From the IMG/VR virus record IMGVR_UViG_3300039106_000244, positions 1-64,000 of that record: a stretch of 64,000 bases of DNA; one strand, 5' to 3'. A model generated the notes under the pieces. It saw nothing but the letters and a program-made list of their open reading frames with translations. It was not told the origin of the DNA and did no database searches. Source of the DNA: a virus. The stretch's first letter is position 1. The number at the start of each line of letters is the position of its first letter. The translations under genes were made by a program, and so were the position numbers. Shown in pieces: positions 15,686-48,849 of this stretch.

Positions 15686-16534
15686 ATGAAAACATATCTC
15701 GATTCACTCAAATTTGTACTAGATAATGGTACAGTAAGACCAGACCGCACATCAACAGGAACTATTGGTGTGTTTGGTATGCAACAACGTTACGATCTAT
15801 CACAGTCCTTTCCTGCTATTACTACTAAAAAACTAGCATGGAAGGCTGTTGTCTCTGAACTACTTTGGTTTATTGAAGGTAGTGGCGATGAACGTAGGCT
15901 CGCAGAACTACTGCACGGCACACGTGATGACAGTAAGCGTACAATATGGACAGACAATGCAACATCTCCATATTGGATTCTTAAATCTACATTCAAAGGC
16001 GACTTAGGTAGAGTCTACGGGGTGCAGTGGCGACATTGGCGAACACCAGACGGAACGGAAGTGGACCAACTAGCAGAACTTATCCACAATATTAAAACAG
16101 ACCCACACGGACGACGACATATACTAACAGCGTGGAATCCTGGAGAATTAAGCTCTATGGCTCTACCACCGTGTCACTGTTTTGCCCAGTTTTATGTTAG
16201 TGCCGACAATAAGTTGTCGTGTCAATTATACCAGCGATCATGCGATATGTTTTTAGGTGTTCCTTTTAACATAGCGTCCTATTCACTTCTAACACACATG
16301 ATTGCGCAAGTGTGCGGACTTGGAGTAGGCGAATTCGTTCACGTTCTCGGTGATGCCCACGTATATTTGAATCATGTAGATCAGGTAAACGAACAACTGC
16401 AACGTGAACCATTACCTGCGCCACAACTTTGGATTAATCCAGATGTTACTGACATAAATCACTTTACTATGAAGGATTTTAGACTAGATGGCTATAACTC
16501 ACTTGCTGCTATCTTGGCACCAATGGCTATATAA
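15686..16534 (+). CDS. thyA: Thymidylate synthase
   Basis: DRTSTGT, ELLWF, YGVQWR, RR, MALPPCH, YQRSCDMFLGVPFNIASY and GDAHVYLNH. Confidence 0.97.
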   Translation: MKTYLDSLKFVLDNGTVRPDRTSTGTIGVFGMQQRYDLSQSFPAITTKKLAWKAVVSELLWFIEGSGDERRLAELLHGTRDDSKRTIWTDNATSPYWILKSTFKGDLGRVYGVQWRHWRTPDGTEVDQLAELIHNIKTDPHGRRHILTAWNPGELSSMALPPCHCFAQFYVSADNKLSCQLYQRSCDMFLGVPFNIASYSLLTHMIAQVCGLGVGEFVHVLGDAHVYLNHVDQVNEQLQREPLPAPQLWINPDVTDINHFTMKDFRLDGYNSLAAILAPMAI

Positions 16535-17529
16535 TGATAATTGGTATCGTATCCGATCATGCAATTGGTGGGACATTTTTATCTTGGTCATTACATTACC
16601 TTGCAGGACATAGAACTTATTTTTCTACAGTAAAAAAAGAATATAACAAATTGCCCGATAACCCGCTAACTGATATAAATGCACATATCTTTGATAATCA
16701 AGTTGAGACACTAACACAATTTACTGAGTATATTGATTTAATAACTGAGATACCAACTAATTTATTTCATTCTGTGTATTTTCATAATTTAAATAATGGT
16801 ACAGTAGCCACATCATCCATCTGTATAGATACAACAAAAGCAATTGATCAATTACAAACAATAACAGAGAACGTAATATTGTTATACAATCAACCATCTC
16901 GAGCATTGTACTATTCAAAATTTCAATGCAGAGATTTATCAGTGAAAATGAATAAAATAGATGAAGTTAATAATAATTTCAATGACCATCATAATGATTT
17001 CATTGATACATTCTTTAATGAATCAAAGACAGCATGGGAACAGTCGGGATTAACAAATACATGGGATTATAGAGAATTTTTAGCATTAAATCTAAGACCG
17101 TATGATGTTATATCTATCGTCCCAAATTTTAATTTTACTAAAAAGCATTATCCATTGGATTGTTTTGAATTATTTAATAATTTTGATAAGACAGTAATAA
17201 GTTTATTTGATTTTTTAGAATTAAAAATTGATAGTAGTAGATGGAATAATTGGCTTACTGTTTATAATCAATGGAAAGAATTACACACAGATAGAATATT
17301 ATTTGTAGACTATTTTGATCAGATAATAGATGCTATTCTTAACAATTATTATATGGAATTAAGTCGGTTTAATTTAGACATTGTGCAAGAAGCGGCTATT
17401 CAACATGTATTGCTTTACAAACACGGGCTAACATTTAGAGCCCGGGGATTAGAAAAATTCAACAATACACAAGATTTACATTTATTATTAGAACCAAATA
17501 TATATCATGATGTGAAGGATTATTTATAA
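16534..17529 (+). CDS. Hypothetical protein, possibly sulfotransferase-like P-loop fold
   Basis: N-terminal beta-strand plus IGGTFLSWSL resembles the 5'-PSB loop; visibly AT-rich. Confidence 0.4.
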   Translation: MIIGIVSDHAIGGTFLSWSLHYLAGHRTYFSTVKKEYNKLPDNPLTDINAHIFDNQVETLTQFTEYIDLITEIPTNLFHSVYFHNLNNGTVATSSICIDTTKAIDQLQTITENVILLYNQPSRALYYSKFQCRDLSVKMNKIDEVNNNFNDHHNDFIDTFFNESKTAWEQSGLTNTWDYREFLALNLRPYDVISIVPNFNFTKKHYPLDCFELFNNFDKTVISLFDFLELKIDSSRWNNWLTVYNQWKELHTDRILFVDYFDQIIDAILNNYYMELSRFNLDIVQEAAIQHVLLYKHGLTFRARGLEKFNNTQDLHLLLEPNIYHDVKDYL

Positions 17530-17530
17530 A

Positions 17531-17857
17531 ATGGCTATGAATCGCTCGCAAGCATTAAATCACCGATGGCAGTCTAAAGAAGCTAATACTCATCGTGTGC
17601 GGTTTTTTACAAAAATGGTAGATATAGATGAAGCTTCTGACATGCACAATAATGAGATATTTTGGAAGGTTGCAGAAGAATTTAAACTAACTCCGCAGGC
17701 GCAATGGGTTGATGATAATGACATTAAACTTGCATTTATGGAAGGTGAAATATATTATACCTGGGGTAAGATGTGTATTATATACGGCGATATTACCGAA
17801 CGACAATATGTAGATTATAGTTTGCGATTTTTTGTACACCAAACGGATTGGAAATGA
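17531..17857 (+). CDS. Hypothetical phage protein
   Basis: 108-aa ORF; the start may be 17537. Confidence 0.7.
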   Translation: MAMNRSQALNHRWQSKEANTHRVRFFTKMVDIDEASDMHNNEIFWKVAEEFKLTPQAQWVDDNDIKLAFMEGEIYYTWGKMCIIYGDITERQYVDYSLRFFVHQTDWK

Positions 17858-18828
17858 AAATAATAATCACAGGCGGTGCAGGATTCATTGGTCATAATGT
17901 AACTCGCATATTAGAACAGCAAGGGCATGAGTGCATTGTTATTGATACTACAACCGACTACGGCTTTATACCAAAAAAGGAATTAACTTATCTTAAATCT
18001 TCACGTAAAGAACGTTTTAACTCACATGTTATACATACTGATATATGTAGCGTTAATCATATCGACAGTATTTTTAGCGCAGTACGTCCAGAGCTAGTAA
18101 TACATCTCGCTAGCTTTCCGCGGCAACATATAGTAAATCGAAACCCAATAATTGGGTCAGAAGTAATGACTACTGGACTAATTAATTTACTCGAAGCAAG
18201 CGCACGTTATAACATTAAGAAGTTCGTTTACATTAGCAGTTCGATGGTGTATGGTGATTTCATTGATAAAATGTTTGATGGCATTGATGAATATTCTGAA
18301 TGCAAACCAATTGGACAATACAGTATCATGAAGTACATGGGCGAGAAACTTGTAGCTGATTATACTTGTCGTGGTTGCTTTGCGCATACTATCATTCGCC
18401 CAAGTGCTGTATACGGACCTTGGGATATCAAGGATAGAGTTGTTAGTAAGTTTATGCTTGCGGCAATGCGCAATGAAGTATTAACTGTAAAAGGCCCCAA
18501 AGAAGTATTAGACTTTACCTATGTCGAAGATACTGCTACAGGCATTGCCCAAGCCGCGTTAAGCGATAATGCTAACAATAAAATATATAACATCACACGG
18601 TCATCTAATATCGAATATACATTACTTGATGCCGCAAAACTTGCTGTTAGTATTGTAGGCAAAGGTAATATCGAAGTTGCAGAACGTGACTTAGCATTTC
18701 CAATACGTGGTAGATTGAGTATTATGAATGCAAGAACAGACTTTGGGTACAATCCAACAGTTGATGTAGAAGATGGCTTTGCTCGTTATTATGAATGGTT
18801 TACTAACTCGGAGTATTATAAAATATGA
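17848..18828 (+). CDS. NAD-dependent NDP-sugar epimerase/dehydratase (extended SDR)
   Basis: TGGAGFIG, HLAS, SSSMVYG, YSIMK, RPSAVYGP and DFTYVED. Confidence 0.93.
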   Translation: MEMKIIITGGAGFIGHNVTRILEQQGHECIVIDTTTDYGFIPKKELTYLKSSRKERFNSHVIHTDICSVNHIDSIFSAVRPELVIHLASFPRQHIVNRNPIIGSEVMTTGLINLLEASARYNIKKFVYISSSMVYGDFIDKMFDGIDEYSECKPIGQYSIMKYMGEKLVADYTCRGCFAHTIIRPSAVYGPWDIKDRVVSKFMLAAMRNEVLTVKGPKEVLDFTYVEDTATGIAQAALSDNANNKIYNITRSSNIEYTLLDAAKLAVSIVGKGNIEVAERDLAFPIRGRLSIMNARTDFGYNPTVDVEDGFARYYEWFTNSEYYKI

Positions 18829-19880
18829 TTAAATTAAGTGATTTCCATTATGAACGCGAACATAGTTTAGATAAATTATGTTCAGGTACATTAACCAGAC
18901 AAGACTTTATCTTAGGTAAAGCAGTAAGAGATTTTGAATCTAATTTTGGAAAATATACTAATACCAATCATTGTGTAGCAGTTGGTAATTGTACAGATGC
19001 ATTACGATTAAGTTTAGATGCAGTAGGGGTTAAGCCCGGTGACAATGTTATTACTGTGGGACTTACCTGGTTAAGTTCATACGAAGTTATTGCTAATTTA
19101 GGTGCAGAAATACGCTTAGTTGATGTTAATGAATATTTAACAATGAACATGGGTGATGCATTAAATGCTATAGATAGTCGTACCAAGGCTATAATCGGAG
19201 TTGATCTATTTGGGCAACCGTGCGAATGGGACAAGGTTAAATTTCCTGTAGCAACTATTAGCGATGCAGCACAAGCCACTGGTGCAAAATATAAAGATCA
19301 AATGGTTGGTGGTATCACTGACTTAACTTGCTTTAGTTTCTATCCTACTAAGAATTTAGGTTGCTTAGGCGATGGTGGTGCAGTTACTACTAATAATGCA
19401 GAATATGCCGCTACTATTAAGAAATTACGTAATCACGGACAAGAGAGTAAATTCAATGTTAGTCATGTAGGATATAATAGTCGCTTAGATAGTATACAAG
19501 CAGAGTTACTTGATAATAAATTACCATACTTAGATCAATGGAACATTCGTCGTCGAGAGATTTCTGCATACTACGATGAACAATTTAAAAATTTATTTGA
19601 TGTTATTCCGCAACATCCGTTAGGGTATAATGTACGACATCAGTATATTATATTAAGTGAAAAATCGGAACACATCGAAGCGGCACTTAAAGCAAATGAT
19701 ATCGAGTCACGTAGATATTACAGCAACCTTGCATATAAACAACCTGCATATAATATTAATGTCACCTTGCCTAATACCGAATATTATAGTCGATTAAACC
19801 TGGCGATTCCAACTCATCAATTCCTAACTGATAACGAAGTTGAATTAATTGCTAGCATTGTTAAGAGAGAATTTAAATGA
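18825..19880 (+). CDS. DegT/DnrJ/EryC1/StrS PLP-dependent sugar aminotransferase
   Basis: DAAQATG, SFYPTKNLGCLGDGG, LRNHG and GYNSRLD. Confidence 0.95.
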   Translation: MIKLSDFHYEREHSLDKLCSGTLTRQDFILGKAVRDFESNFGKYTNTNHCVAVGNCTDALRLSLDAVGVKPGDNVITVGLTWLSSYEVIANLGAEIRLVDVNEYLTMNMGDALNAIDSRTKAIIGVDLFGQPCEWDKVKFPVATISDAAQATGAKYKDQMVGGITDLTCFSFYPTKNLGCLGDGGAVTTNNAEYAATIKKLRNHGQESKFNVSHVGYNSRLDSIQAELLDNKLPYLDQWNIRRREISAYYDEQFKNLFDVIPQHPLGYNVRHQYIILSEKSEHIEAALKANDIESRRYYSNLAYKQPAYNINVTLPNTEYYSRLNLAIPTHQFLTDNEVELIASIVKREFK

Positions 19881-20755
19881 AATTAGGCATTGCAGGTGCA
19901 GGTTACTGGGGTAGCAAAATTGTTAATAGTGCTAGTAATCAAGCCACTATTGTTATCATGGATATTAAAAATGGCGACAGTTGGCAAAATAAAACATTAG
20001 ATGCTGTTATTATTGCTACGCCAGCTGATCAACATTACCTTATGACTAAATGGTATCTTGAACAAGGTATTCATGTATTATGCGAAAAACCTACATGCAT
20101 GAATGTAGTCGAACAACAAGAATTAAATGATTTAGCCAAGGCACAAAACTTAGTTTATCAAGCTGGCCATATCTTATTATTCCAGCCTAACGTAGAGTAT
20201 ATGTTAAATTATGTAAGTGGATTAACTGTACGTCACGTAGAATCACGTAGACTTAATTGGGGTAGATTACAAACCAATATTGATTTAGCTTGGCATTTAG
20301 CACCACACGATATTAGTGTAATCGATAAATTATACGGCGAATTACCTAATACTATTAATAGTCAAGGAACACATTTAAACAATGGTCCACAATTTGATTA
20401 CGCAACAAACGAATTGACATATAATGAGAAGAGTGCTACAATAACATTAGGGTGGCAATGGCCTAAGAAGGTTAGAGAATTTGTTGTTACCTGTGACGAA
20501 TGCCAAATATGGTTAGATGATATAGAGTTGCAGATTATCGAAGGAGGTTACGCTAATGGTAATCTCAGTGAAACAAAAATTTCAACTGTACAATTCAACC
20601 CTAAGCAATCACCATTGGAAGCGCAAATTCAAGACTTTATGCGCTGTATAGATACTGGCAACAAACCAAGAGCAGACATAGACCATATGTTAAGAGTAAC
20701 ACAAACTGTAGAATTAATGTCAAAGAAATTTATGTCAAGGAACTTATATGTATAA
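19877..20755 (+). CDS. Gfo/Idh/MocA NAD-dependent sugar dehydrogenase
   Basis: GAGYWG, IATPADQH, HVLCEKP and LAPHD. Confidence 0.92.
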   Translation: MKLGIAGAGYWGSKIVNSASNQATIVIMDIKNGDSWQNKTLDAVIIATPADQHYLMTKWYLEQGIHVLCEKPTCMNVVEQQELNDLAKAQNLVYQAGHILLFQPNVEYMLNYVSGLTVRHVESRRLNWGRLQTNIDLAWHLAPHDISVIDKLYGELPNTINSQGTHLNNGPQFDYATNELTYNEKSATITLGWQWPKKVREFVVTCDECQIWLDDIELQIIEGGYANGNLSETKISTVQFNPKQSPLEAQIQDFMRCIDTGNKPRADIDHMLRVTQTVELMSKKFMSRNLYV

Positions 20756-21389
20756 ACGTATTTTAGCAGTTGGGGCTCATCCCGATGATATCGAATTAGG
20801 TTGTTTAGGTACATTATTAAAGTTTCGTGATCAAGGGGCAGAGTTTGATATTGTAGTAGCACGTAACGATAATGTTCCACGCCCAAGTGTATGGCGCGAC
20901 AAGGATAAAATGATTGCTGAATATTCAGCAAGTGAAAAAGTCATCGGTACTAAGTTTACATTTCTTAATAATCGGTTAGATGCAACTGGTCGCCCTGTAT
21001 TAGAATGGGATAGTGCCACTGTAGAGCAACTTGATACATATATGCGTGATAAGGAATACGATTTAGTTATTACTCATAGCCCGGGTGACCATCATCAAGA
21101 TCATGTAAATACGTTCCATATCGTTAACAGTAGTCTACGTCGTTATCAAGGCGAATTGTGGTGCATGGAAGGTGGTCCATATACTAATCGTAATAAAGAA
21201 TTTGTGCCTAATATATTCGTAGATATTGCTCCATACATTAACACAAAAATTGAAGCCATTCAATGTTATGATAGTTACTTTAGCGATACATTATTGCATA
21301 ATATCAAAGGGCAGGCTGCCTTACGTGGACAGATGCTAGGTAGTACGTATGCAGAATCGTTTGAAGTTAGGTATCGTTGTATTAAATGA
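20748..21389 (+). CDS. PIG-L/LmbE family N-deacetylase
   Basis: VGAHPDDIELG and THSPGDHHQDH. Confidence 0.93.
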   Translation: MYKRILAVGAHPDDIELGCLGTLLKFRDQGAEFDIVVARNDNVPRPSVWRDKDKMIAEYSASEKVIGTKFTFLNNRLDATGRPVLEWDSATVEQLDTYMRDKEYDLVITHSPGDHHQDHVNTFHIVNSSLRRYQGELWCMEGGPYTNRNKEFVPNIFVDIAPYINTKIEAIQCYDSYFSDTLLHNIKGQAALRGQMLGSTYAESFEVRYRCIK

Positions 21390-22453
21390 TTAAACTATTC
21401 CAATTAGATCGAATATGGGCAGAAATACGTGAACATAGTTTAGCGTCAATTGATTATATTTGTAGTCAAGGTATTGCTCAAAAAGGTTCAACAGTAGAAA
21501 GCGTAGAAGAATGGTTGCGACTTGAGAGCGGGCGCAAGTATGCTATTACCCTTGCTAGCTGTACAGACGCCTTAACGTGCATCTTAGAAGCATTACAGTT
21601 ACCACCAAATAGTCTTGTTGCAGTTCCTAGTTATACATTTATTGCTACTGTTAATGCTGTACGTAAAGCAGGTTATATACCAGTGTTTGTTGACGTTACT
21701 AACGATTTTCATATAGATTTAGATCAGATATCAAATGTACAAGCAGTAGTGCTAGTAGATTTATTTGGATTAGCAATAGACTACGATTATCTACATAACT
21801 GGCAACAGAATAATCCAGACATTGTGGTTGTTATGGATGCCGCGCAAAGTATAGAAACAAAATACAACAATGAGCATAGTATGAAACAAGGTATTGCCGC
21901 GGCAGTTAGCTTTGCTCCTACTAAAACTATTCCTGTATTTGGATCCGGTGGAGCTATTGTAACAGATAATGAAGAGCTCGCATTGTATGCACGTAAATGG
22001 CGTACTCATGGTAAAAATACCAATGGCGATACTATGATTTGCATTGGTGCAAATAGTATGCTTGGTAGTATGGAGGCCGCACAACTAACAGGCTGTATTA
22101 CAAATCATGTAGCGTGGCGAAATCGTAGAGAACAGATCGCCCGGGCATATATTGCTAATATTATCAATCCTAGTCTAACTGCACCAACTACTAGAGGTGA
22201 GCATAGCTGGCATAAATTTGTTATTACCTGTGAGTCAATTGAAACTAAAGATGCATTGACAAAATTTCTAAATGAGCGTAATATAAGTACTGCGGTGTAT
22301 TATTCACCATTGGTTCACAACGAATATAACGTAGACATAAGTTTACCCAATTCAGAAAGATTAAGCAAATGTAGTGTTGCTATACCTTGTCAGCATACAT
22401 TATCAGACCACGAATATCAAACAATAGCGCAAGCTCTTAAGGATTTTATATGA
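21386..22453 (+). CDS. Second DegT-family sugar aminotransferase
   Basis: PSYTFIAT, DAAQS, SFAPTKTIPVFGSGG and RTHG. Confidence 0.92.
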   Translation: MIKLFQLDRIWAEIREHSLASIDYICSQGIAQKGSTVESVEEWLRLESGRKYAITLASCTDALTCILEALQLPPNSLVAVPSYTFIATVNAVRKAGYIPVFVDVTNDFHIDLDQISNVQAVVLVDLFGLAIDYDYLHNWQQNNPDIVVVMDAAQSIETKYNNEHSMKQGIAAAVSFAPTKTIPVFGSGGAIVTDNEELALYARKWRTHGKNTNGDTMICIGANSMLGSMEAAQLTGCITNHVAWRNRREQIARAYIANIINPSLTAPTTRGEHSWHKFVITCESIETKDALTKFLNERNISTAVYYSPLVHNEYNVDISLPNSERLSKCSVAIPCQHTLSDHEYQTIAQALKDFI

Positions 22454-23436
22454 AAATATTAATTTTAGGTGGACACGGCTTTATAGGTAGTCACACAAGC
22501 AATAAACTTAACGCATTAGGGCACACAATTGGAGTAGTCGATTGTTACCATCAATATTATACCTTTCCAGATTGGGAATATATTCCAGTGCTGGCCCAAC
22601 GTATTGCATTAGCAAATGCAGATTCTGTATTCGAAGGACGAATCGAAGATCAGTTGTTTATTAATGGCGTGTTCAATGAATTTAAACCAGATGTTGTAAT
22701 TCATGTAGCAACTTATCCTAATGCTAAAATGGTGCATCGTAATCCAGTTGATGCGGCTAATAACATGGTTAGTGCTACTGCTAATGTATTATTAAATTGC
22801 ACTCAACATCACGTTAAACGGCTTGTATTTGCATCTAGTAGCATGGTATACGGTGATTTTAAAACTGCAGCCCCTGATGAGTTTGCGCAATGTGATCCAC
22901 TTACGTTATATGGTAGTTACAAATTGCAAGGCGAACGTATGGTTAAGATTTGGGCACAAGATCATGATTTAGAATATGTTATTATGCGCCCAAGTGCCTT
23001 ATATGGCACACGTGATATGATTGTGCGAGTTATTAGTCAAATGGCCGCAGGTGCATTGCGCAACGGTACAATTACAGTACAAGGTCCCAACAATAAATTA
23101 GATTTTAGCTTTGTAGAAGATGTTGCTGGATATTTTACCGAGGCGGCATTAAATCCAAACGCAGTAAATCAGATATTCAATTGCACACGTGGATACGGTA
23201 GGACTATATTAGAAGCGGCAGAATTAGTGCAAAGTCGAGTAGGCGGTGAAATTATAGTTAAGCCACACGATATATTTTATCCTAGCCGTGATACCCTTGA
23301 TAGTGATAAGATTAAACACATGCTAAACTACAAACCAATATGGGACATCGAGCAAGGTATTCCTGCATACCTTGATTGGTTGTTAGAACAAGAATTTATT
23401 GGTCAACTTCGGGATACAGTTCCGCAAATTGTTTAG
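22450..23436 (+). CDS. Second NAD-dependent NDP-sugar epimerase/dehydratase
   Basis: GGHGFIG, SSSMVYGDF, YGSYK and RPSALYG; paralog of 17848. Confidence 0.92.
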   Translation: MKILILGGHGFIGSHTSNKLNALGHTIGVVDCYHQYYTFPDWEYIPVLAQRIALANADSVFEGRIEDQLFINGVFNEFKPDVVIHVATYPNAKMVHRNPVDAANNMVSATANVLLNCTQHHVKRLVFASSSMVYGDFKTAAPDEFAQCDPLTLYGSYKLQGERMVKIWAQDHDLEYVIMRPSALYGTRDMIVRVISQMAAGALRNGTITVQGPNNKLDFSFVEDVAGYFTEAALNPNAVNQIFNCTRGYGRTILEAAELVQSRVGGEIIVKPHDIFYPSRDTLDSDKIKHMLNYKPIWDIEQGIPAYLDWLLEQEFIGQLRDTVPQIV

Positions 23437-26739: not shown

Positions 26740-26745
26740 ATTGTA

Positions 26746-38209: not shown

Positions 38210-38215
38210 TTAGTA

Positions 38216-38244: not shown

Positions 38245-38250
38245 TCTTTT

Positions 38251-38334: not shown

Positions 38335-38913
38335 TCAACAGAAGTGCGACCATACATTTATATCTGCACACATAAAACAACTGGAAAATTTTACATCGGA
38401 TATAGAGAAGCAAATAAAATTGCATCACATCTAGATTTTCCTTTATATAAGACTTCCTCTAAAATTGTCAGACCAGATTTTGATAATTACACCTGGATTA
38501 TATTTGCTGAATTCTTAAATGGCGAATCCGCATATCAAATTGAGCAACAACTAATTTTCGAAAACTGGAGTAACCCTTTATTAATAAATCAACATCAGAG
38601 AGTACACGCTTCGACTCCTCTCAGAGGAAGTAGGAAAAATGCAGTATTATCTGACGCTACTAAAAAGAAAATTTCCGACGCAAATAAAGGTAAGAAGAGG
38701 TCAACAGAATTTAAAGAAAGAATGGCTATTTTACACCAAGGCAAAAAACATTCACTAGAATCAATTACAAAAATGAAAATGCGAACAATGTCAGACTCAG
38801 CAAAAGCTCATTTATCGAGTATTAATAAAGGAAAAATAATGTCAGCTGAAACTAAAGAGAAACTTCGTCAAGCTAATCTAGGCAAAAAAAGAGGAAAGTA
38901 TAAAAAAGACTGA
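38320..38913 (+). CDS. Free-standing GIY-YIG homing endonuclease with NUMOD3-like repeats
   Basis: YIYICTHKTTGKFYIGYR, YKTSS, EQQLI, LIN, then SDATKKKISDANKGKKRS, HSLES and MSAETKEKL. Start probably ATG 38320 (AGGAG RBS), not 38263. Confidence 0.85.
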   Translation: MNIYQSTEVRPYIYICTHKTTGKFYIGYREANKIASHLDFPLYKTSSKIVRPDFDNYTWIIFAEFLNGESAYQIEQQLIFENWSNPLLINQHQRVHASTPLRGSRKNAVLSDATKKKISDANKGKKRSTEFKERMAILHQGKKHSLESITKMKMRTMSDSAKAHLSSINKGKIMSAETKEKLRQANLGKKRGKYKKD

Positions 38914-38915
38914 CT

Positions 38916-40304
38916 TTAGTTCGAAGCGTGATAGTTGCACTCCTGCCAGAAGTCTGTCATCTGTGGGAACGTTTTCAAAAAGTTTAAGCCTCTGCGTTTA
39001 TCGTATTCATTGAAGAACTTATAAAAGTCTGCTCTTTGTAGTGTAACATATTCCTTAGGTAGTTCACAACCTTGTTTCATCCAATCTACATTACGTTCCA
39101 TACGTTGTATTTCGTAATCCTTAAAGCCTTCAAAGTTATCAGCAGTTTCATCTGCTTGATTTGCTCGCATAAACGTAACAACATCTTCTAATATGCGAAC
39201 ATAACTTGCTGGAAGTATTTGTAAACTTTGATAGGTTGGGCTACGTAATAGTGGCGTATCGAACCACACACGTTGATAAGTTGTGCTGTATTTGTTACGC
39301 ATCTCTAATATCTGTGTCAATAAAAGTTTTAGTCCAAGTACGTTTAAATTGTTCATTGTAATAATAAACGTTAGGCTATTGCGGTATGGCACTACTGCTA
39401 GGAAATCGTTAGTATAGCGCATGACTCTGTCCCATTGTAGACCATCGCGTATATATTCTGCATGTCTAGGAAGTCCGCTATCTAAGCTAACATACTGCAT
39501 AAAGTGTTCAATGCGTTCACCAGTGCATAGTTGTTTTACTTTGTCTAGGTACTTGTCAAACAGTTCGGGCTCAACACTAAAGTTACTAGTAACGTCTACG
39601 TGCAGATCACTCTTGGGTAAGGCAAGTATGTAATCAAATACACGATGTGTATTCTTATCCATAAGCGGTTCGCCACCAGTCATTCTAAAGTGTTTTAGCT
39701 TAGGGTACAGCTCGGGCCACCAACGCCAAAATGCTTCAACATACGGGTTAGATTCACGTACTGGGATTGGCTTGCGTCGACCTTGAAAGTGTTCAGGCGC
39801 ATTGTGTGGTACGCTTGTTGGATACGCACCCCAACGATCAATGTCTTTGCCCCACTCCGTTGAATACTGTGGACTGCAATATGAACAAGCTAAGTTACAG
39901 CCGTGACTAAAGTTTACTTCGACATAACTTGGCACAACGTCTTGGTCCCATGGTGCGTTTACTATTTCTTCATAGTGTTCGGCCGCCCACGGTTCACCAC
40001 TGCGATAGTGTCTATCGCTTAGTTGTTTGTTATCTTCTGCACTCCAACAGTAACTACATTCTGCTGGGCGTATTTGCTCTAGCATAAGTTTACGTTGCTG
40101 TTTCTTGTAATCAGTGTTATGTAGCGCACCTGGATTGAATAACAATGGAGCACTATCAATCTCATGTAAGGGCGGATGATAACAACTATTTGTTAGTCCA
40201 GTTGGCAGATGTAAACTTACTTGTTGCCACTTAGCCAAGCAGAGTGCAGGACCTAATTTATCCTTCATGTCTTCTGCAGCTGTCAGGAAATCACTTTTGC
40301 TCAT
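38916..40304 (-). CDS. Radical SAM enzyme (CxAKW subtype), paralog of 36833
   Basis: CLAKW..SCYHP..CSYCW, CNLACSYC, TGGEP and YIRDG. Confidence 0.92.
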   Translation of the reverse strand: MSKSDFLTAAEDMKDKLGPALCLAKWQQVSLHLPTGLTNSCYHPPLHEIDSAPLLFNPGALHNTDYKKQQRKLMLEQIRPAECSYCWSAEDNKQLSDRHYRSGEPWAAEHYEEIVNAPWDQDVVPSYVEVNFSHGCNLACSYCSPQYSTEWGKDIDRWGAYPTSVPHNAPEHFQGRRKPIPVRESNPYVEAFWRWWPELYPKLKHFRMTGGEPLMDKNTHRVFDYILALPKSDLHVDVTSNFSVEPELFDKYLDKVKQLCTGERIEHFMQYVSLDSGLPRHAEYIRDGLQWDRVMRYTNDFLAVVPYRNSLTFIITMNNLNVLGLKLLLTQILEMRNKYSTTYQRVWFDTPLLRSPTYQSLQILPASYVRILEDVVTFMRANQADETADNFEGFKDYEIQRMERNVDWMKQGCELPKEYVTLQRADFYKFFNEYDKRRGLNFLKTFPQMTDFWQECNYHASN

Positions 40305-41427
40305 TGATTAATATTTTTTGTAATTCGTTTAACGAAGATGCTTCATAGTAATTATACATGCAATTCTTTGCAAAGTCAATATTTTTTTTGAATCTATTAA
40401 GATTATTATACCACAGTGTTTTAGTATTATCTAAATTAATTAATAATTCTCGGTTCAATTCAATGGCAGAAATTATCCGATCTAATGGATTCTCAATGGT
40501 GTCGTAACTGTGATTAATAATATCATCAAACATATCAAACCCTACTCGTCTTAAATGCTTAACTGTTCTAACAGGTGCTAGCACAATCGGAAAATTGGCG
40601 CCATATATATTTTGTAGGAATTTTTCAGTTAAGAAACTACTTGGTTCACAAAAATTTGATTCTGTGATAATTTCTACAAATGTGTGTTGGTATATAGGTT
40701 TAAGATATAAATTAAAATTATTAACATTATCATTGAGTGATTGTTTGAACGTAGCATTGACTTTATTAAAATCAAACTTAATACCATTTCCTTGTTTTGC
40801 TTTTTGAAATCCCACAAGTATAGTATCTAAATATAAATTCTGTTGTTGCGTAGTTAACTGCCAATTACATAAATCTAGCCATGAATTATATTTTTTATCT
40901 ATCGATTGATAATTAAAAGTAATATAACCATATTGGTCAAGATCCATTCCTAATAGATAACTAACTGTAGTATAACGATGTGGTCGTAAACCACGATTTA
41001 AACACATAAAGGTAGTTAAATTATCATTGCTCTTATCTAATACACTTTCTCTATGATGTGTATGTTGCATTTGCAGGCCACCGTGACAAATTAAATGTAC
41101 ATTATTAGCAGCAATTTCTCTATCCAAATAATCCATTGCTGTGGATATTATAAATGTAGTAGCTGGATTTTTTAATGCAATATCAAGTAATACCTGCGCA
41201 TGTACTGTTCTTGTTTGTGTTGGATTATAATCAGAATGATATTGTAAATTATCTACAATGAATAATAATACCAAAGAAGATTCAAATTTTTCCTGTATTA
41301 AATCTTCGAACACCTCATTAAATGAAGCAAAGTAATATGCTTCGGCATTGTTGGGCAACGTTGTAACCATTTTCTTAAATAATTCAAAATACCATTCATC
41401 AAATGGCAGTCGTTTAAATATCTTCAT
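40291..41427 (-). CDS. Putative glycosyltransferase-like protein (TEK family, paralog 2)
   Basis: FMCLNR..RPHR, VEIITES..FLTEK and GFDMFDDIINHSYD. Confidence 0.55.
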   Translation of the reverse strand: MKIFKRLPFDEWYFELFKKMVTTLPNNAEAYYFASFNEVFEDLIQEKFESSLVLLFIVDNLQYHSDYNPTQTRTVHAQVLLDIALKNPATTFIISTAMDYLDREIAANNVHLICHGGLQMQHTHHRESVLDKSNDNLTTFMCLNRGLRPHRYTTVSYLLGMDLDQYGYITFNYQSIDKKYNSWLDLCNWQLTTQQQNLYLDTILVGFQKAKQGNGIKFDFNKVNATFKQSLNDNVNNFNLYLKPIYQHTFVEIITESNFCEPSSFLTEKFLQNIYGANFPIVLAPVRTVKHLRRVGFDMFDDIINHSYDTIENPLDRIISAIELNRELLINLDNTKTLWYNNLNRFKKNIDFAKNCMYNYYEASSLNELQKILINEQK

Positions 41428-42454
41428 TGAATATTTCTTGTATTTGATTAATTGATAAATTTAAAAAATTATTATAATTATGATCCAATATTAATTGCAT
41501 ATCATTGAGTTTAGTATGTAAAGTTTCCACTGGCCAATTAGATATACTATTCAATAATTTTTCAATGTGAGTAATACGATCATGAATACCCACTAAATCA
41601 TATTCTTCGGACCAAAATTCAGCAAATGTTTTAAATCCCAGCTTACGTAGGTTAGCAAGGTAATTAGGATTTGACATCACAATAAACGGACGTTTTGCTA
41701 TAATACAGCGCCACAGCTTTTCTGTCACTAGAAAACAATTACCACTTACATTTGGTTCACATATAATATCAACAAATATATCATTGTAATATTGTAAAAG
41801 ATTTAAATTAGTTGGATGCTGAATTGGGTAATAACTATTTTCGTGTTGAAATGTACCATTTTTACAATTATCTAAATTTTGTAAATATTCTATATCTATT
41901 GTACGTGGACACGTTTTAATAAATTCCACAGCATCAACAACTATATCACATTTAAAATTTATTAAATCATCGAGTCCAATATAACCATTGCCATTGGCAT
42001 TTTCTCTCAATGGATCATAATGATATGTTTGTATGGTTTTATTGTTATAATACTTGTTTAATATAGTTGCGATCCATAATCTATACCAATTACTTCTACT
42101 AGAGAAATTAGCAAAATGTTTAGTAGGAGTTGTGTTGATATTAAGTACTTTGTTATGTAGCCATTCTTGTATTCCGTTCACTTCATACCACGACGATGCT
42201 TGCTTATTGATAATATAATCAGGATGTTGTTCTATCATATTGCCTGTATTAATTGTTATCTGATTCTTATTATAACCTGTACGTAGACAAAATTCATCTA
42301 ACAATCTATATAATCCTAGTGCAGTAGCACACGATCCCTCGGGCGCAAAATCTATTTCTATAGTCTGTTTATTAATGTAACATTTGTACAAAAATTCAGT
42401 CAGCAATTCTTTGCGCCAAATCTTTCTATCTAATGTTTGTACATGTATTTTCAT
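41414..42454 (-). CDS. Putative glycosyltransferase-like protein (TEK family, paralog 3)
   Basis: VDIICEP..LVTEKLWR..KRPF..LRKLGFKTF..WSEEYD. Confidence 0.55.
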   Translation of the reverse strand: MKIHVQTLDRKIWRKELLTEFLYKCYINKQTIEIDFAPEGSCATALGLYRLLDEFCLRTGYNKNQITINTGNMIEQHPDYIINKQASSWYEVNGIQEWLHNKVLNINTTPTKHFANFSSRSNWYRLWIATILNKYYNNKTIQTYHYDPLRENANGNGYIGLDDLINFKCDIVVDAVEFIKTCPRTIDIEYLQNLDNCKNGTFQHENSYYPIQHPTNLNLLQYYNDIFVDIICEPNVSGNCFLVTEKLWRCIIAKRPFIVMSNPNYLANLRKLGFKTFAEFWSEEYDLVGIHDRITHIEKLLNSISNWPVETLHTKLNDMQLILDHNYNNFLNLSINQIQEIFNEDI

Positions 42455-43302
42455 TTAATTTTTCTTCTTGTTACATTTTCTAAATGTATAATTTTAGATT
42501 CGATATCAGCGGTTGTAGGGCACATACTACAAACATTAGCAGCTTTTCCAAAATTCTCTAGAAACGTAGTAAGTTCTAATTCTGAACAGTCTGCTCCTAT
42601 TCCTGTTTGTAAATATTGTGCCCATTGCTCGCTATTAGGATTATTAAATCGTTCCAATGTTTCTGCTAATAAACCGCTTGTACTGCATTTATAAATCCGA
42701 CCATTATGCATCAATGGACACGTTTGTTGACAACAAATGTCAAATGCTTGTGCTGGGTTGTTAGTATGTGGTTGCATATTTTCATACGAACCTTTAAATG
42801 TCTTCCAGAATATGTCAGGTCGTTTAACATGAAATCGAAAGTTATTTGCTGTTTTATAACGTGCTACTCCGTATTCAGTAACAGGCTCCCAATCGTAACT
42901 ATCAAATATACGTTGTATAATTAATTCTAATTCTGGATTAGGTTGATGTACTGCAATCTTAAATACGCAGTTACCTACTTCGGCTAAATGTTTAACTATA
43001 TCAAACTTTTTATTTAATAATAATCCGTTTGTAGTAAATCGTATTTGTGAATCAGGCATTAGTTCACGTATCCCAAATATCCATTCATTTACTTCTGGGC
43101 TTATAGTAGGCTCACCCCCGAGTATTCCAAAATCAGGTATATCCACCCGTTCCAACCAGGATTCTAGCCAGGCCTTGCCCTGACGCCAAGGTACATATCC
43201 TTCGTGTTGTAAATCACTATAGTTTGTACAACCAGTGCAACTTAAATTGCACACCTGAGTAATCATTGTTTCAACAAACGGAAGTGTTGGCTTTACATCC
43301 AT
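42451..43302 (-). CDS. Radical SAM enzyme with C-terminal Cys cluster
   Basis: CNLSCTGC, LGGEP, TTNG; C-terminal CCQQTCP..YKC..CSMCP. Confidence 0.9.
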   Translation of the reverse strand: MDVKPTLPFVETMITQVCNLSCTGCTNYSDLQHEGYVPWRQGKAWLESWLERVDIPDFGILGGEPTISPEVNEWIFGIRELMPDSQIRFTTNGLLLNKKFDIVKHLAEVGNCVFKIAVHQPNPELELIIQRIFDSYDWEPVTEYGVARYKTANNFRFHVKRPDIFWKTFKGSYENMQPHTNNPAQAFDICCQQTCPLMHNGRIYKCSTSGLLAETLERFNNPNSEQWAQYLQTGIGADCSELELTTFLENFGKAANVCSMCPTTADIESKIIHLENVTRRKIK

Positions 43303-44027
43303 CCTAATTCCTTAACTAACGGATGGAGTATTTTATTGTACCAATTAGCATTACCTTCTGCTGCATGATGGCCAAACCAGCCAGACCCTTTTTCCCAATC
43401 CTCAGCGGCCGGTCTGATATTATCTGCTTCGTTAACTGAATGACATGTATTATCAAATATAATGCATTCTTTGAGAGATTTTATCTTTAGCATTATGTTT
43501 TTACTCACTGGCCAGTCCGGCTCATACCTGATGGGAATAGTTAAATTAACAATTACAAATTTTGCCGAATGGGCCTTTAATAAATTGTATATTAATAATA
43601 TCTTATCACATGTTATTGTTTCTTGCCAGCTGTGATAATAATTTGCCATAAAATATTTTTCTTGTGCAAATATCTCATGAAAATCAAATTGTTGGGTTCC
43701 GCCCACTGATTCTGTATTATACTTCTGCTGTTGAAAGTTTTGATTAAATGTTGAATACGGCCATTGTGTTAATCTATTAGATTCTCTATAGATAGCTAGT
43801 CTTGCAACTGGAGGAATACCAATAACATAATATCCTTGAGAAAAATCAAATGATTCATTACATATTATATGTATAATCTGATCTAGACTAAATCCACTGT
43901 GACTGTAATTAACTATATTATCTACTTTCAAATCTCTGGCTAGCAATCCCCAGAAACTATCTGCAGGTGCTACACAGAAGTTAGGAGTAGAAAACGAATC
44001 TCCAAAAACATATAATGTTTTATTCAT
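43293..44027 (-). CDS. SGNH-fold protein
   Basis: VFGDSFS, NYSHSG.S and GHH..GN. Confidence 0.7.
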   Translation of the reverse strand: MNKTLYVFGDSFSTPNFCVAPADSFWGLLARDLKVDNIVNYSHSGFSLDQIIHIICNESFDFSQGYYVIGIPPVARLAIYRESNRLTQWPYSTFNQNFQQQKYNTESVGGTQQFDFHEIFAQEKYFMANYYHSWQETITCDKILLIYNLLKAHSAKFVIVNLTIPIRYEPDWPVSKNIMLKIKSLKECIIFDNTCHSVNEADNIRPAAEDWEKGSGWFGHHAAEGNANWYNKILHPLVKELGWM

Positions 44028-44991
44028 GTATTCTTGTAATATCCGATGTGAATTGTTGATTGATTAATAATTGATAATTGTGTTCAATAGTTGCTTGTAG
44101 TTTATTATTTAACTCATCTAATTGTTGTAGAGATAGATTTGATAATTGATCAATCAGCGATAGTATTGAAAAATATCTATTCTTTCCGGTTAAATCATCA
44201 TATGATTCACTCCAGCAATCTGCAAATGTCTTAAATCCCATTTGTTGTAAGTATCTTAGGTAGAATAACGGAGCCATTACAATAAATGGTTTACGACACA
44301 ATATAGCCCGGGCTATTTTTTCTGTAGGATAAAAACTGTTGCCGTTAACGTTAGGTTCGACTACTAGGTCGACAAATATATCCTTGTAAAGATAATTTAT
44401 CTCGTTGTTATAATCATATCTGCGTAAATTATGATTATGTGCAAAATCTGTGGCCTGATATTGATTGATATTAGTTAATAATGCAATGACCTTAGGCATA
44501 ATTTCCGGATGCCATCCATATAATTTTTGTAACTCAAAATTCTTACGATTATCTTCTTGTGTATTGTTAAAGCGTACCTTGATAACTGCTTGTGCCGGGT
44601 TTACGTAACTAGCAATGCCCAATCTGCTAGCACTCGGTCTGCCATAAAAACACCCAAATATTTTTTGTTTTGTCCATGAATAATCATATGCATGATCAAA
44701 TGTAGAAAGATCCCATCGGAGCCAATGGTTCCAATCGTATGGTTCTTGAATACTATATCGATGATGGTGTTCTACGATATTAGCAGTTAAAATAGTAACA
44801 GACGTAAATGTAAATAAATCAAGGATATCATATACTCCACAAAATCGTAAACAGTGAGATTCTTGATTTACAACTAATTTAATATCTGTATGTTCATTTT
44901 CTTTGCAGAATCTAACAAATGGTATTATATTATCTAATTGATCATTTTCTAACTGCAATGTATATGTATTCATTATTTGCAGAATTCCCAA
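44020..44991 (-). CDS. Putative glycosyltransferase-like protein (TEK family, paralog 4)
   Basis: VDLVVEP..FYPTEKIAR..KPF..GFKTF..WSESYD; closest to 41414. Confidence 0.55.
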   Translation of the reverse strand: MGILQIMNTYTLQLENDQLDNIIPFVRFCKENEHTDIKLVVNQESHCLRFCGVYDILDLFTFTSVTILTANIVEHHHRYSIQEPYDWNHWLRWDLSTFDHAYDYSWTKQKIFGCFYGRPSASRLGIASYVNPAQAVIKVRFNNTQEDNRKNFELQKLYGWHPEIMPKVIALLTNINQYQATDFAHNHNLRRYDYNNEINYLYKDIFVDLVVEPNVNGNSFYPTEKIARAILCRKPFIVMAPLFYLRYLQQMGFKTFADCWSESYDDLTGKNRYFSILSLIDQLSNLSLQQLDELNNKLQATIEHNYQLLINQQFTSDITRIHE

Positions 44992-45731
44992 TTATACGTA
45001 TCTTGATAGGCCCAATGTAATTTTCTCCAACAATTTAATATTGTAATAGCTGTTTGGTCAAGTCGTATTCCAAATATACTCATTAATTTTTCTATTATTA
45101 AATTAGGATCTGCTGTTATTAACTCCTCAATTGATAACACCGGAATATGTTTATTAACTTCTAAAAATTGTTTTTGCTGTCTCTCGAGTATTTCTCTCAT
45201 GTTAATAGTATTCATTTTGAAATATTCGTGTTGTCCATTTTCTGATATAAATTGTGTTACTTGTTCTTCTTTATTATCATTAAATGAAAAATCCATCATT
45301 GCTTTATTATTGCCATCTACACATTTAAAATGCAATGCTCTAACTTGCCATTCTAATCCTTGAGCTGTCAATGGTGTAATATACAACATGGTTGTATCTT
45401 TAAAAAAATTATCAAATTCAGAATTTATATCCCATAGTAGAGAATGGTTTAATATTACTATTGGACTTGTAATTTTATAACGAGATTGTTTATATGTATT
45501 GTAATCAAGTGCAAGCGTGGAATCTACACCCGATATAGGATTAATAAAATCTAAGTTCCGTTCAGTGACCCACCAGCCCGATAATGAGTCAGTGGCATAT
45601 TGTGCTAAAATTGTATCGTATCTATCGCAAGATTGCTCGGGCCAATATACATCTTTACTAGTTAATAGAAGATTTCTTACTAAGTTTCCGGCGGCGCCAA
45701 CATTAGCAATTAAGAATAAATCTTTAATCAT
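44973..45731 (-). CDS. Hypothetical protein, possibly sulfotransferase-like P-loop fold
   Basis: N-terminal LIANVGAAGNLVRNLL and C-terminal LSIEEL...W...H; weak resemblance to 16534. Confidence 0.35.
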   Translation of the reverse strand: MIKDLFLIANVGAAGNLVRNLLLTSKDVYWPEQSCDRYDTILAQYATDSLSGWWVTERNLDFINPISGVDSTLALDYNTYKQSRYKITSPIVILNHSLLWDINSEFDNFFKDTTMLYITPLTAQGLEWQVRALHFKCVDGNNKAMMDFSFNDNKEEQVTQFISENGQHEYFKMNTINMREILERQQKQFLEVNKHIPVLSIEELITADPNLIIEKLMSIFGIRLDQTAITILNCWRKLHWAYQDTYNWEFCK

Positions 45732-46624
45732 TCTCTAGCCATTATGCCTCTATTTTTAAATACGCTTTTATAATGGTGCTTAAAGAATCTACTTTGGTCT
45801 GCTGTAAGATGCGGAGCGGCTAATCCTAATTTTACATTTAAGGTATGTGACATTTCATTACATTCTTCTACTAGATTATACACCTTATGTTGATGCCAAA
45901 TATTATTCAGTGCATCAAAGTCCTGCACTTCTCTATAATCCCAATCTGTAATCATGGTCATGTATGTACCAAGTTTTGCACCGTACATTGCCCAATCACC
46001 ATGCTCTACATCCATGCCTACGTTGTGCCATATACTTAAATGATCATAGTTGCGAGCATGTACACGTTGTTCAAACTCTTGTAGGCTCGGTTTTGTACCA
46101 CGATCTAAACACATTTTAACACCTTCTCTAAAGCCTGCTCGCCATGCCTGATATGGAGATTGATTTGGGTATGTTGTGCTATAGCAATCATTCATTGCCC
46201 AATAGTTAGGATGAAAACAAAACTCAACCGCTGTATCATCTGCACCATCACTTGCCTCATGTGTACGCATGTTGTTAACAAAGTCTTTGGTCCAACAACT
46301 CATGCCACCGTTGCCATACATAAGTCCGTTGATGTGATTACGTGCTTTCCATCGAAATACTACATCTTTATTAGTATCATCTAATGTAAGTTGTAGGTTG
46401 AAAAATTCTGGGTCAGGTAAGTTATCACCGTCAATTAGTACAAAGCGTTCTGTATCACTTGCGGCTGCGGCTGCTTTATGTGCGGCATCACTGCCTTTAA
46501 CTCCATCTACACGTTTGGCCCACGGAACCATATTTTGAATCTTAATCCAAAACTCTTCTTTTTTGGGTTCATCGTAACTTAGGTAAATGCAATCTAAGTC
46601 TGCAATATCAACGATTTGTGTCAT
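45728..46624 (-). CDS. GT-A-fold glycosyltransferase-like protein
   Basis: LSYDEP, VDGVKGSDAAH, FVLIDGDN (DxD), NGLMYGNGG and AWRAGFREG. Confidence 0.65.
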   Translation of the reverse strand: MTQIVDIADLDCIYLSYDEPKKEEFWIKIQNMVPWAKRVDGVKGSDAAHKAAAAASDTERFVLIDGDNLPDPEFFNLQLTLDDTNKDVVFRWKARNHINGLMYGNGGMSCWTKDFVNNMRTHEASDGADDTAVEFCFHPNYWAMNDCYSTTYPNQSPYQAWRAGFREGVKMCLDRGTKPSLQEFEQRVHARNYDHLSIWHNVGMDVEHGDWAMYGAKLGTYMTMITDWDYREVQDFDALNNIWHQHKVYNLVEECNEMSHTLNVKLGLAAPHLTADQSRFFKHHYKSVFKNRGIMARE

Positions 46625-46964
46625 AGTATTCTATATCCTGATAGGTGTCAGTTGGTTCTAATATTAATCCTGCATGGTTCTTTACTGTGGCATAACCCTC
46701 AGAGCTACTTACTAATTGTATACGATACCCAGGATTGTTGTCAATCTTTTTCAGTTTACCATCTACAATTGTATAGCGGAAGTAGTTGTTATATTCATCT
46801 TTGCTAACAATAATATACATTGTATCTGTTGGGTGATTTATCATTGTACACATTGTAATGATTCCATCTTCGGTATAATGTAATCTATATTCTTTAACTT
46901 CTTCAACCGCAGGTTTAAGCATTGCTAATGCTTTTTCAAATTCACTTAAGGAGTTCATGTTCAT
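46608..46964 (-). CDS. Hypothetical protein
   Basis: Overlapping, operon-internal ORF. Confidence 0.7.
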   Translation of the reverse strand: MNMNSLSEFEKALAMLKPAVEEVKEYRLHYTEDGIITMCTMINHPTDTMYIIVSKDEYNNYFRYTIVDGKLKKIDNNPGYRIQLVSSSEGYATVKNHAGLILEPTDTYQDIEYYDTNR

Positions 46965-47796
46965 ACTCCTTAACTAATTCATCTGTAACCCAAGACTTTT
47001 CATGATAGTGAATAGGGTGATATTGATTTGTATTTGCTATACGTATCATTGGCAAATCTGTTTCACACACAACTAACTCGGGCCATGGCGTACTAGTCCA
47101 CGAGTTAATTGCAGGCTTCATGTGTACAAAGTTAATAAAGTCCATCGGCAATGTACAATCTTCTATGCCAAGTAACTTTGCAGTTAACGCATAAACAACA
47201 TCAGTGGTTGGATTGTCATCTCGGCAGTTAAGCAATACATTATCACGTAGATGTGCCCAATTTTTAAATATTTGTTCTGCTAGTGTAAAGAACTGTGTCG
47301 CTTCTCTTGTATATCTAAAATACATTAGTCCGCTGTAGGTGTCAGGTAATTCATTGTCATCGAACAACTTTCTATATTCACGCGATGCACTTAATTCTTG
47401 CTTATAATTTCTACAGCCCGAGCTTAATACAACATTCTTTAATCTAAAAGTAGTCCACCAATGTGCAATACTTCTTGTAAACACAATATCGCTTTCAAGT
47501 TTAATTGTTTCTTTGAATGGAGTAAGATAAAATACCTGCCACTCGTTACTTAACTTCCAAGTTTCAACTTGTGCTAAGTCATTCTCAATTGTAATTACAT
47601 AATCAAATACTTTGCGGTGCTGTTCTGTTACTTGCTCTAATGTATTCTTATCAACTGCTACTGCATATAAACTGCCAGGCATTGTTAATTTAATGCTCAT
47701 TGCCTGTACGTAAGCAAGACGCAAATAATCAACATCTGCTGTGTTTTGTGCAATAGTCATAAAACCTTGCTGTGCTTGATGTGGAGTTATGCGCAT
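46942..47796 (-). CDS. Nucleotide-diphospho-sugar transferase-like (GT-A) protein
   Basis: DYLRLAY..A.SIK, TPFKETIKLESD, YSGLMYF, TDVVYA and FVHMK. Confidence 0.6.
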   Translation of the reverse strand: MRITPHQAQQGFMTIAQNTADVDYLRLAYVQAMSIKLTMPGSLYAVAVDKNTLEQVTEQHRKVFDYVITIENDLAQVETWKLSNEWQVFYLTPFKETIKLESDIVFTRSIAHWWTTFRLKNVVLSSGCRNYKQELSASREYRKLFDDNELPDTYSGLMYFRYTREATQFFTLAEQIFKNWAHLRDNVLLNCRDDNPTTDVVYALTAKLLGIEDCTLPMDFINFVHMKPAINSWTSTPWPELVVCETDLPMIRIANTNQYHPIHYHEKSWVTDELVKEYEHELLK

Positions 47797-48563
47797 ATTG
47801 TATCTACTAGTTTATCAAATTCTGCACTTAATAAGTAATCTTTATCCATTATGTGTACGTTTTGCTTGGCAACGACATGTGCTATATTTTCTTCACGTAC
47901 AACCATCTTTTCACCTGTTATTTCGATGTTTTTAACTAGTTTATCTATAGTTAGCATAGTGAAAGGGATACTTTGCGATAGGTCAGTTGTGTAACCACTA
48001 ATAATGTTATTAGCAATTGCAAATGCGTAATCGTTGCGGAAATTATTTTCTCTTAATTGATACAACTTTTGATAGTAAGCATAGTTGCGTTCAATTCTGC
48101 CCACTAAGTCAAATAATGCTTTTGTTTTATCTGTGCGTTTAAAGGTTATAGCAGTTGCCCATACATAATCTAAACTTAGTTGCCCCATATTACCCGACAT
48201 TGATTGTGTAGGACTTTGATTGTGATGCATTAATCTATAATCAATAGTTGTATTAAGTATGTTTAATAAACTTGTATCAAACTGTAAGTAATCACTGTCA
48301 AGTAATATAGTTTCATCATATGGGCTAAGTTCATAAGCACGATATCTACCACCATTCTTCCATTGTGTGCCGCTGGCATAACCAGTTCGATGGTTGTCTG
48401 CGGAATCTACGCCAGTGTTGGTTATAATTGTAGTGGGTAGATTTAATGTATGCTTTATTAGTCGTGCGGCTTGCTCAGCGATTTTAACGTAATCAACTGT
48501 ATCTGTATTGACTGCAAATAGTATTACGCCCTTAGACTTTTCTTGCACGTTTAATTTCTTCAA
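47787..48563 (-). CDS. Nucleotide-diphospho-sugar transferase-like (GT-A) protein, paralog of 46942
   Basis: DYVKIA, SPYDETILLDSDY (DxD), WAT, FRNDYAFAIA and HIMDK. Confidence 0.65.
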   Translation of the reverse strand: MKKLNVQEKSKGVILFAVNTDTVDYVKIAEQAARLIKHTLNLPTTIITNTGVDSADNHRTGYASGTQWKNGGRYRAYELSPYDETILLDSDYLQFDTSLLNILNTTIDYRLMHHNQSPTQSMSGNMGQLSLDYVWATAITFKRTDKTKALFDLVGRIERNYAYYQKLYQLRENNFRNDYAFAIANNIISGYTTDLSQSIPFTMLTIDKLVKNIEITGEKMVVREENIAHVVAKQNVHIMDKDYLLSAEFDKLVDTICA

Positions 48564-48849
48564 ATTGAATATGCCATGCGTTCATGGCCAGTTGATAATG
48601 TTGTGTGGCTAACTCTAACATTGCTATCCTATTAACTTTAATTGGATTTTGATAAGTATCTTCTATAACCATTTCGTACAAGTCATATAAGTTTAGAAAC
48701 GCTATTAGCTCAGGCGTAGCTTTAAATAGCCCGCCACTAAGTGTAAAATGCAAATCACTTTGTATTTTTTCTCTGAGTATGCGTTTGTTTGTTTGATAAT
48801 CTGTCGCTTGTTTAATTTGAGCAACTAGTTGATTGATTTCTGTTGTCAT
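48532..48849 (-). CDS. Hypothetical phage protein, first gene of the leftward modification operon
   Basis: 105-aa ORF with GGLFKATPELIAF..D.YQNPI. Confidence 0.75.
   Translation of the reverse strand: MTTEINQLVAQIKQATDYQTNKRILREKIQSDLHFTLSGGLFKATPELIAFLNLYDLYEMVIEDTYQNPIKVNRIAMLELATQHYQLAMNAWHIQFEEIKRARKV

Follow-up and report, generated by a model that had tools for sequence, protein, structure and literature searches.

The first 64,000 nucleotides of the IMG/VR virus record IMGVR_UViG_3300039106_000244 (hereafter, the window) carry a dense gene island between thyA and a pair of fibre-like genes. The island encodes a soluble, phage-borne enzyme set that may produce a protein-linked glycan, displayed on virion or fibre proteins, with a 33-residue peptide serving as primer, carrier or enzyme partner; this reading is plausible but tentative. 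The analysis shows the protein families, the GT-A folds, the conservation of the locus, the lack of membrane proteins and the coding nature of the peptide, and each chemical step, the product and the acceptor are inferred. Family identities were assigned by Pfam and NCBIfam scans against curated cut-offs.

The plus-strand segment 17848-23436 forms a nucleotide-sugar block in the order SDR, DegT, Gfo/Idh/MocA, PIG-L, DegT, SDR. All of the families proposed for it in the original prediction were recovered in place by Pfam and NCBIfam: two short-chain dehydrogenase/reductases (SDRs; 17848-18828 and 22450-23436), two DegT aminotransferases (18825-19880 and 21386-22453), a Gfo/Idh/MocA dehydrogenase (19877-20755) and a PIG-L deacetylase (20748-21389). 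Dehydratase-type SDRs carry the motif TDEVYG; both SDRs of the block have SSSMVYG instead. Upstream of the block, thyA (15686-16534) scores above the thymidylate synthase equivalog cut-offs, and the family scan places a dihydrofolate reductase (DHFR) gene at 15147-15650.

About seven glycosyltransferase (GT)-like genes had been predicted in the interval, and none of the seven passes a Pfam GT cut-off. The largest, an 808-aa protein with tandem GT-A domains (23396-25822, minus strand), gave an AlphaFold2 (AF2) model, built with 20 relatives, with a mean confidence (pLDDT) of 84.4. Foldseek matched this model to the chondroitin polymerase K4CP (E 9e-7; probability 0.96-1.0), with further matches to Mimivirus R699, LH3, heparosan synthase, SunS/ThuS and WrtF. 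VIA located GT-A or nucleotidyltransferase-type domains at residues 235-365 and 573-808 (Z 8.4-10.7). On the modelled structure, the protein is thus assigned the GT-A fold; a profile search of the PDB gave no useful match for it. A 298-aa protein (45728-46624, minus strand) is a paralog of its last domain (E 1.6e-14). For the neighbouring pair 46942-47796 and 47787-48563, a six-sequence profile retrieved glycogenins as 19 of 20 PDB matches (best E 1.4e-4), with an alignment that spans the DxD region and sets the DSD of the pair opposite DAD; Pfam gives a weak match over 46942-48563 (E 0.1). The remaining three, termed X paralogs, carry a GT10-like 'TEK' motif (40291-41427, 41414-42454 and 44020-44991, minus strand), and the four X paralogs share the longer form FLTEKTFKPI. 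A Pfam domain was found in none of the best 120 of 1499 X-paralog homologs. Of the predicted seven, the 808-aa protein and the 298-aa paralog have the support of fold and the glycogenin-like pair that of a profile match; the three X paralogs are weak candidates.

Five N-twitch radical S-adenosylmethionine (SAM) domains are encoded by four minus-strand genes within 32993-40304: 32993-34294, 34281-36836 (two fused domains), 36833-38209 and 38916-40304. The array is split by a NUMOD3 homing endonuclease gene (38263-38913, plus strand), and a fifth radical SAM gene lies at 42451-43302 on the minus strand, giving the five genes that had been predicted and six domains in total. The three outliers proposed outside the island are also present, namely a B12 radical SAM (126-2135), an N-twitch radical SAM (9879-11369) and a paralog at 2444-3580. 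Four of the genes score 277-720 bits against NF033640 (N_Twi_rSAM) and the outlier 9879-11369 scores 238, the cut-off being 170, which was passed in none of 14 control genomes. The radical SAM proteins belong to this N-twitch family and not with BtrN or GenK, the analogues originally proposed. Cysteines C12, C31, C83 and C86, together with C136, C140 and C143, are invariant in all six N-twitch domains (five from the operon and the outlier), and both the CX3CX2C motif and the N-terminal four-Cys twitch are intact. In a tree of 76 radical SAM domains, drawn from 15 loci and the window, the window domains A, B, C, D and E each fall into their own clade, represented in 15, 13, 15, 13 and 8 of the 15 loci, respectively; the clade around A is poorly supported (0.37). 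Next to the array, a 365-aa protein that belongs to no family (31921-33018, minus strand; AF2 pLDDT 86.5) appears, from its model, to resemble a cyclophilin-like barrel with a helical insert. Its full VIA alignment gives a middling Z of 8-9.2, Foldseek found nothing in the PDB at E <= 0.001, a PDB profile search likewise returned nothing useful, and BFVD holds 10 uncharacterised phage look-alikes.

The predicted NodU/TobZ-type carbamoyltransferase (28889-30391, minus strand) has both Pfam domains, PF02543 and PF16861, above their cut-offs (140.2 and 161 bits). Its best NCBIfam match is NodU, with 146 bits against the equivalog NF041651 and a cut-off of 1000 that is not reached. The short APS-kinase-like P-loop kinase (26323-26739, minus strand; APS, adenosine 5'-phosphosulfate) was also correctly predicted, with 31.0 bits for PF01583 against a cut-off of 21.1. 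It scores 26.4 bits against the equivalog TIGR00455 (cut-off 138.7) and matches phrog_10255 (1.7e-32). Among 33 distinct relatives, 16 have a longer kinase of about 263-280 aa (for example, L071:11476-12270), with an extra C-terminal part that bears nucleotidyltransferase-like motifs of the HxGH and ISATKIR type, a tail that is missing from the kinase in the window. In the two long forms scanned, the APS_kinase match reaches 1e-11, and one of them shows a sub-threshold cytidylyltransferase-like match. Among the proteins proposed to be sulfotransferase-like, the divergently transcribed 26817-28022 (plus strand) is a lead from the Atlas only, where its nearest clusters are Stf0 sulfotransferases (0.95-0.96) and the structure rows give TM scores of 0.40-0.49; the proposals for 16534-17529 and 44973-45731 are unsupported. 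The PDB profile search found nothing useful for the protein u331. The four predicted SGNH proteins, all on the minus strand (27999-28892, 30392-31033, 31103-31924 and 43293-44027), do open with the GDSF motif, but only 30392-31033 reaches a Pfam cut-off, that of DUF6071; the Pfam matches of 27999-28892 fall below theirs.

The absence of a flippase, polymerase or membrane transferase, as originally claimed, holds in two scans: no such Pfam family was found in the island, and no 19-residue window in any island open reading frame (ORF) reaches a Kyte-Doolittle value of 1.6. A lipid-linked surface glycan is disfavoured because the island encodes no membrane proteins. The minus-strand genes from 23396 to 48849 overlap or abut at every junction, save where plus-strand genes intervene. 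Two genes inside the interval are not sugar-pathway genes, the deoxycytidylate (dCMP) deaminase identified by the family scans at 25815-26333 and the NUMOD3 endonuclease already mentioned; a second, distant NUMOD3 gene lies at 6076-6774 on the minus strand.

The core genes co-occur and are syntenic in related phages. Of 209 IMG/VR stretches that match the carbamoyltransferase, 79 loci were kept, so that this gene is present in 79 of 79 by construction (51-85% identity); the other genes were counted within 10 kb of it. The radical SAM genes are found in 72-76 of these loci, the 365-aa protein in 72, the 808-aa protein in 65, SDR1 and one DegT in 53-55, thyA in 47 and the kinase in 45. The SGNH-like genes 30392-31033 and 31103-31924 occur in 52 and 49 loci, respectively, and Gfo and PIG-L in just 5-7. 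The 18 loci compared for gene order all show the same succession: the 298-aa protein Y298, radical SAMs E-D-B/C-A, the cyclophilin-like protein, SGNH, the peptide, the carbamoyltransferase, the kinase and the 808-aa GT. Around this fixed core the GT, SGNH and sulfo genes differ among relatives, an arrangement that would fit an exposed glycan. In the five closest relatives, DNA identity is 79-85% over 45741-48994 and the fibre genes, and 40300-45700 is largely unmatched. The core reaches far into metagenomes, where scoring covered at least 8000 homologs of one radical SAM and 5393 of the cyclophilin-like protein.

Absent from the earlier reading is a basic peptide of 33 residues (31033-31131, minus strand), with a net charge of +7 and the C-terminus DPFIYK. 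Its ORF is preceded by an AAGGAG site and overlaps the gene that follows by ATGA. The peptide was found in 75 of the 79 loci, 72 by a first pattern and three by further search, and Y17, L24, D28, P29, F30, I31 and Y32 are invariant in 52 sequences. Variation is concentrated in third codon positions (position entropies 17.7, 11.4 and 35.7), and the peptide is therefore coding and under protein-level selection. A profile search of 1.84 billion representatives returned 237 clusters; the best 150 of these are all 27-156 aa long, with most matches at the protein C-terminus and no fusion to an enzyme, and those of greater length resemble tandem copies or read-throughs. No isolate phage was matched by tblastn with the peptide. 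Prokaryote assemblies gave seven matches, all on contigs of metagenome-assembled genomes (MAGs), and on six of these the same phage genes are present. On the seventh, divergent contig a conventional radical SAM/SPASM gene stands immediately before the peptide, and the operon also contains the carbamoyltransferase, about 8.5 kb downstream; from this single case, the peptide would belong to the pathway and not solely to the carbamoyltransferase. The peptide and the carbamoyltransferase are both retained in L044, L079 and L014: the divergent loci L044 and L079 also have a Y-type GT and an N-twitch radical SAM, and L014 has a radical SAM match. The Ralstonia phage RsoM2USA, annotated entirely as 'hypothetical', has the carbamoyltransferase and one radical SAM and lacks the peptide. 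An amphipathic helix was considered for the peptide and rejected, as its helical moment is equalled or exceeded in 1214 of 2000 shuffles.

In the pathway proposed here, host nucleotide sugars would be oxidised, transaminated and, in this lineage, de-N-acetylated, after which GT-A-type transferases would assemble them. The five radical SAMs, the carbamoyltransferase, the SGNH esterases and probably a sulfotransferase dependent on 3'-phosphoadenosine 5'-phosphosulfate (PAPS) would then edit the product. The most likely destination of the glycan would be a protein, with the fibre or virion proteins encoded nearby as candidates, and the 33-aa peptide could be its primer, its carrier or a partner of the enzymes. 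Fibre genes and island share a strand, with the island downstream. The motif TATAAATA is depleted in the window (three copies against 16.9 expected), and one copy stands at 49963-49970 on the minus strand, ahead of the first island gene. A late, virion-linked role is favoured because of this position behind the fibre genes and the copy of a depleted motif at the island head, and the gp55-type late sigma factor of the contig also speaks for the proposed pathway. The original proposal of a phage-encoded cytoplasmic amino-sugar pathway is supported by families, folds, conservation and the lack of membrane proteins; the aminoglycoside analogies are resemblances only.

Several observations weigh against a glycan destined for the virion. 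To our knowledge, no known phage virion glycosylation needs a radical SAM enzyme. Two assignments are weak: that of the X paralogs, with a PDB fucosyltransferase match of E 1.2 over the TEK motif and Atlas values of 0.78-0.79, and that of the sulfotransferase candidate 26817-28022 (ST401), which has no Pfam or PDB sequence match. A perfect sigma-70 consensus (26774-26746, minus strand) precedes the kinase gene; part of the island may thus be expressed early, contrary to a purely late operon. Finally, an invariant peptide together with radical SAMs that have auxiliary clusters fits a peptide-derived product equally.

That last point leads to a rather unlikely alternative, in which the peptide itself is the substrate or scaffold of a product related to peptides made on ribosomes and modified after translation (RiPPs) or to mycofactocin. 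It would be glycosylated, perhaps on an invariant Tyr, edited by radical SAMs and carbamoylated, to yield a free or packaged glycopeptide. Its presence in 75 of 79 loci, its invariant residues and coding character, its retention with core enzymes in L044, L079 and L014, and its position after a radical SAM/SPASM gene on one divergent contig (n=1) would suit a scaffold, as would the standalone short proteins, unfused to enzymes, among the best 150 of 237 clusters. Glycogenin glucosylates Tyr. One GT pair of the island is glycogenin-like, and the C-terminal part of the 808-aa GT aligns to the glycocin transferase ThuS (Z 8.9). However, the conserved part of the peptide has no Cys, Ser or Thr, at least five radical SAMs and at least seven GT-like genes are many for 33 residues, and a RiPP recognition element (RRE) domain, leader protease and exporter were not seen in the Pfam scans. 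The peptide may also be a mere enzyme subunit, and RsoM2USA has the carbamoyltransferase and one radical SAM without it. A fully specified version, in which enzymes of the glycogenin-like or GT-A kind glycosylate the peptide scaffold on Tyr, five N-twitch radical SAMs remodel it, and carbamoyl and sulfate groups are added, is doubtful; if true, it would be the first RiPP-like natural-product pathway core to a large phage clade.

Nod-factor tailoring and the enzyme sets of aminoglycosides (Gfo plus DegT, PIG-L and radical SAM) offer parallels for a free oligosaccharide or pseudo-sugar, or for modification of the host envelope during infection. The enzymes are all soluble, NodU is the best NCBIfam match of the carbamoyltransferase, and the APS-kinase-like, sulfotransferase-like and deacetylase genes follow the Nod-factor pattern. 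We nevertheless consider such a product unlikely: neither an exporter nor a flippase nor a polyprenyl-phosphate transferase turned up in the Pfam and transmembrane-window scans, the carbamoyltransferase falls short of the NodU equivalog cut-off (146 versus 1000 bits), and the position beside the fibre genes is left unexplained. Far less probable still is sugar hypermodification of phage DNA by the island. The thyA, DHFR and dCMP deaminase genes beside or inside it point in that direction, and some phage GTs are able to glycosylate DNA (Pyle 2024, as cited in the part of PMC12619734 consulted). Against this, thyA passes the thymidylate synthase equivalog cut-offs and DHFR fits normal dTMP synthesis. 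In a complete 329-kb relative, which has terminal repeats, the ThyA family is represented by a single gene, and hence no hydroxymethylase is present; as regards the dCMP/dUMP hydroxymethylase of T4/SPO1-type glycosylation, only a single canonical thyA was found in the contig and in the complete relative. T4-style DNA glycosylation is therefore unlikely.

Giant-virus glycosylation relies on virus-encoded soluble GTs near structural genes. Mycobacteriophage virion glycosylation likewise does so (Freeman 2023, as cited in the part of PMC12619734 consulted). Both systems use few GTs, and they have no radical SAMs, carbamoyltransferase, sulfation module or conserved peptide such as the island holds. 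In the consulted part of PMC12619734, four core glycosyltransferase groups are described in one lineage of large aquatic phages, and radical SAM and carbamoyltransferase are both unmentioned. T4-like marine phages (P-SSM2, S-CAM3, HTVC008M) have 'Nol-like' carbamoyltransferase and lipopolysaccharide (LPS)-type clusters, the homologs in which are only 27-32% identical to those of the island. Nod-factor tailoring by NodU, NodH, NodPQ and NodB carbamoylates, sulfates and deacetylates an amino-sugar oligomer; the island differs in having no NodC-type membrane synthase, in its deacetylase family and in the missed equivalog cut-offs. Glycocins (SunS/ThuS) and mycofactocin share with the island a short peptide, a GT-A transferase and a radical SAM that has auxiliary clusters. 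The fold matches of the 808-aa GT include ThuS and SunS, whereas the conserved part of the island peptide has no Cys, Ser or Thr acceptor, no RRE accompanies it and the enzymes are many more. A literature search found no paper describing the island and no characterised member of NF033640, from which the window differs in having five fixed paralogs side by side. Despite the abundance of the core proteins in metagenomes, a reaction is known for none of them; solving the island would assign a radical SAM family its function and account for the use of about a tenth of a giant freshwater phage genome.

The window is the start of a single contig of 117,015 bp (33% complete by CheckV). Beyond it lie genes for a T4-type baseplate, portal, prohead protease, major head protein, sheath and tube, as well as for a late sigma factor of the gp55 type. 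Between the major head protein and its counterparts in the jumbo phages Phosso, Vibrio 2.275.O, PA5oct and pEa_SNUABM, identity is 63-68%. Near-identical DNA was found mainly within one freshwater metagenome run, a possible source of the contig, and 0.35 of the sampled words in a second study. The contig is a fragment of an uncultured, freshwater jumbo phage with a T4-type core. A megablast search with 19.5 kb gave no matches in isolate phages.

The minus-strand segment 40291-45731 is variable and contains the three paralogs with the GT10 motif, the small radical SAM, an SGNH-like protein and a 252-aa protein without an assigned family. It is followed at 45728-48849, on the same strand, by the GT-A paralog of the 808-aa protein, a 118-aa protein, the glycogenin-like GT8 pair and a 105-aa protein. 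Behind the TATAAATA motif lies a 320-aa protein rich in Gly, Ala, Ser, Thr and Asn (48926-49888, minus strand), whose composition suggests a structural role. The two fibre-like proteins (49973-51214 and 51247-52620) are paralogs with 38% identity and have PHROG virion or tail-fibre matches. Directly upstream of their genes is a single minus-strand ORF of 4149 aa, which spans 53447-64000 in the window and reaches 65896 on the contig. A second perfect TTGACA-17-TATAAT match is located inside the carbamoyltransferase gene (29647-29619, minus strand). Upstream of the island, the window also encodes a RelA/SpoT-like HD hydrolase, a MoxR-type AAA ATPase with a DUF2201/VWA partner, and a HIT protein (3675-4205, 4940-6037, 7261-8541 and 11792-12247).

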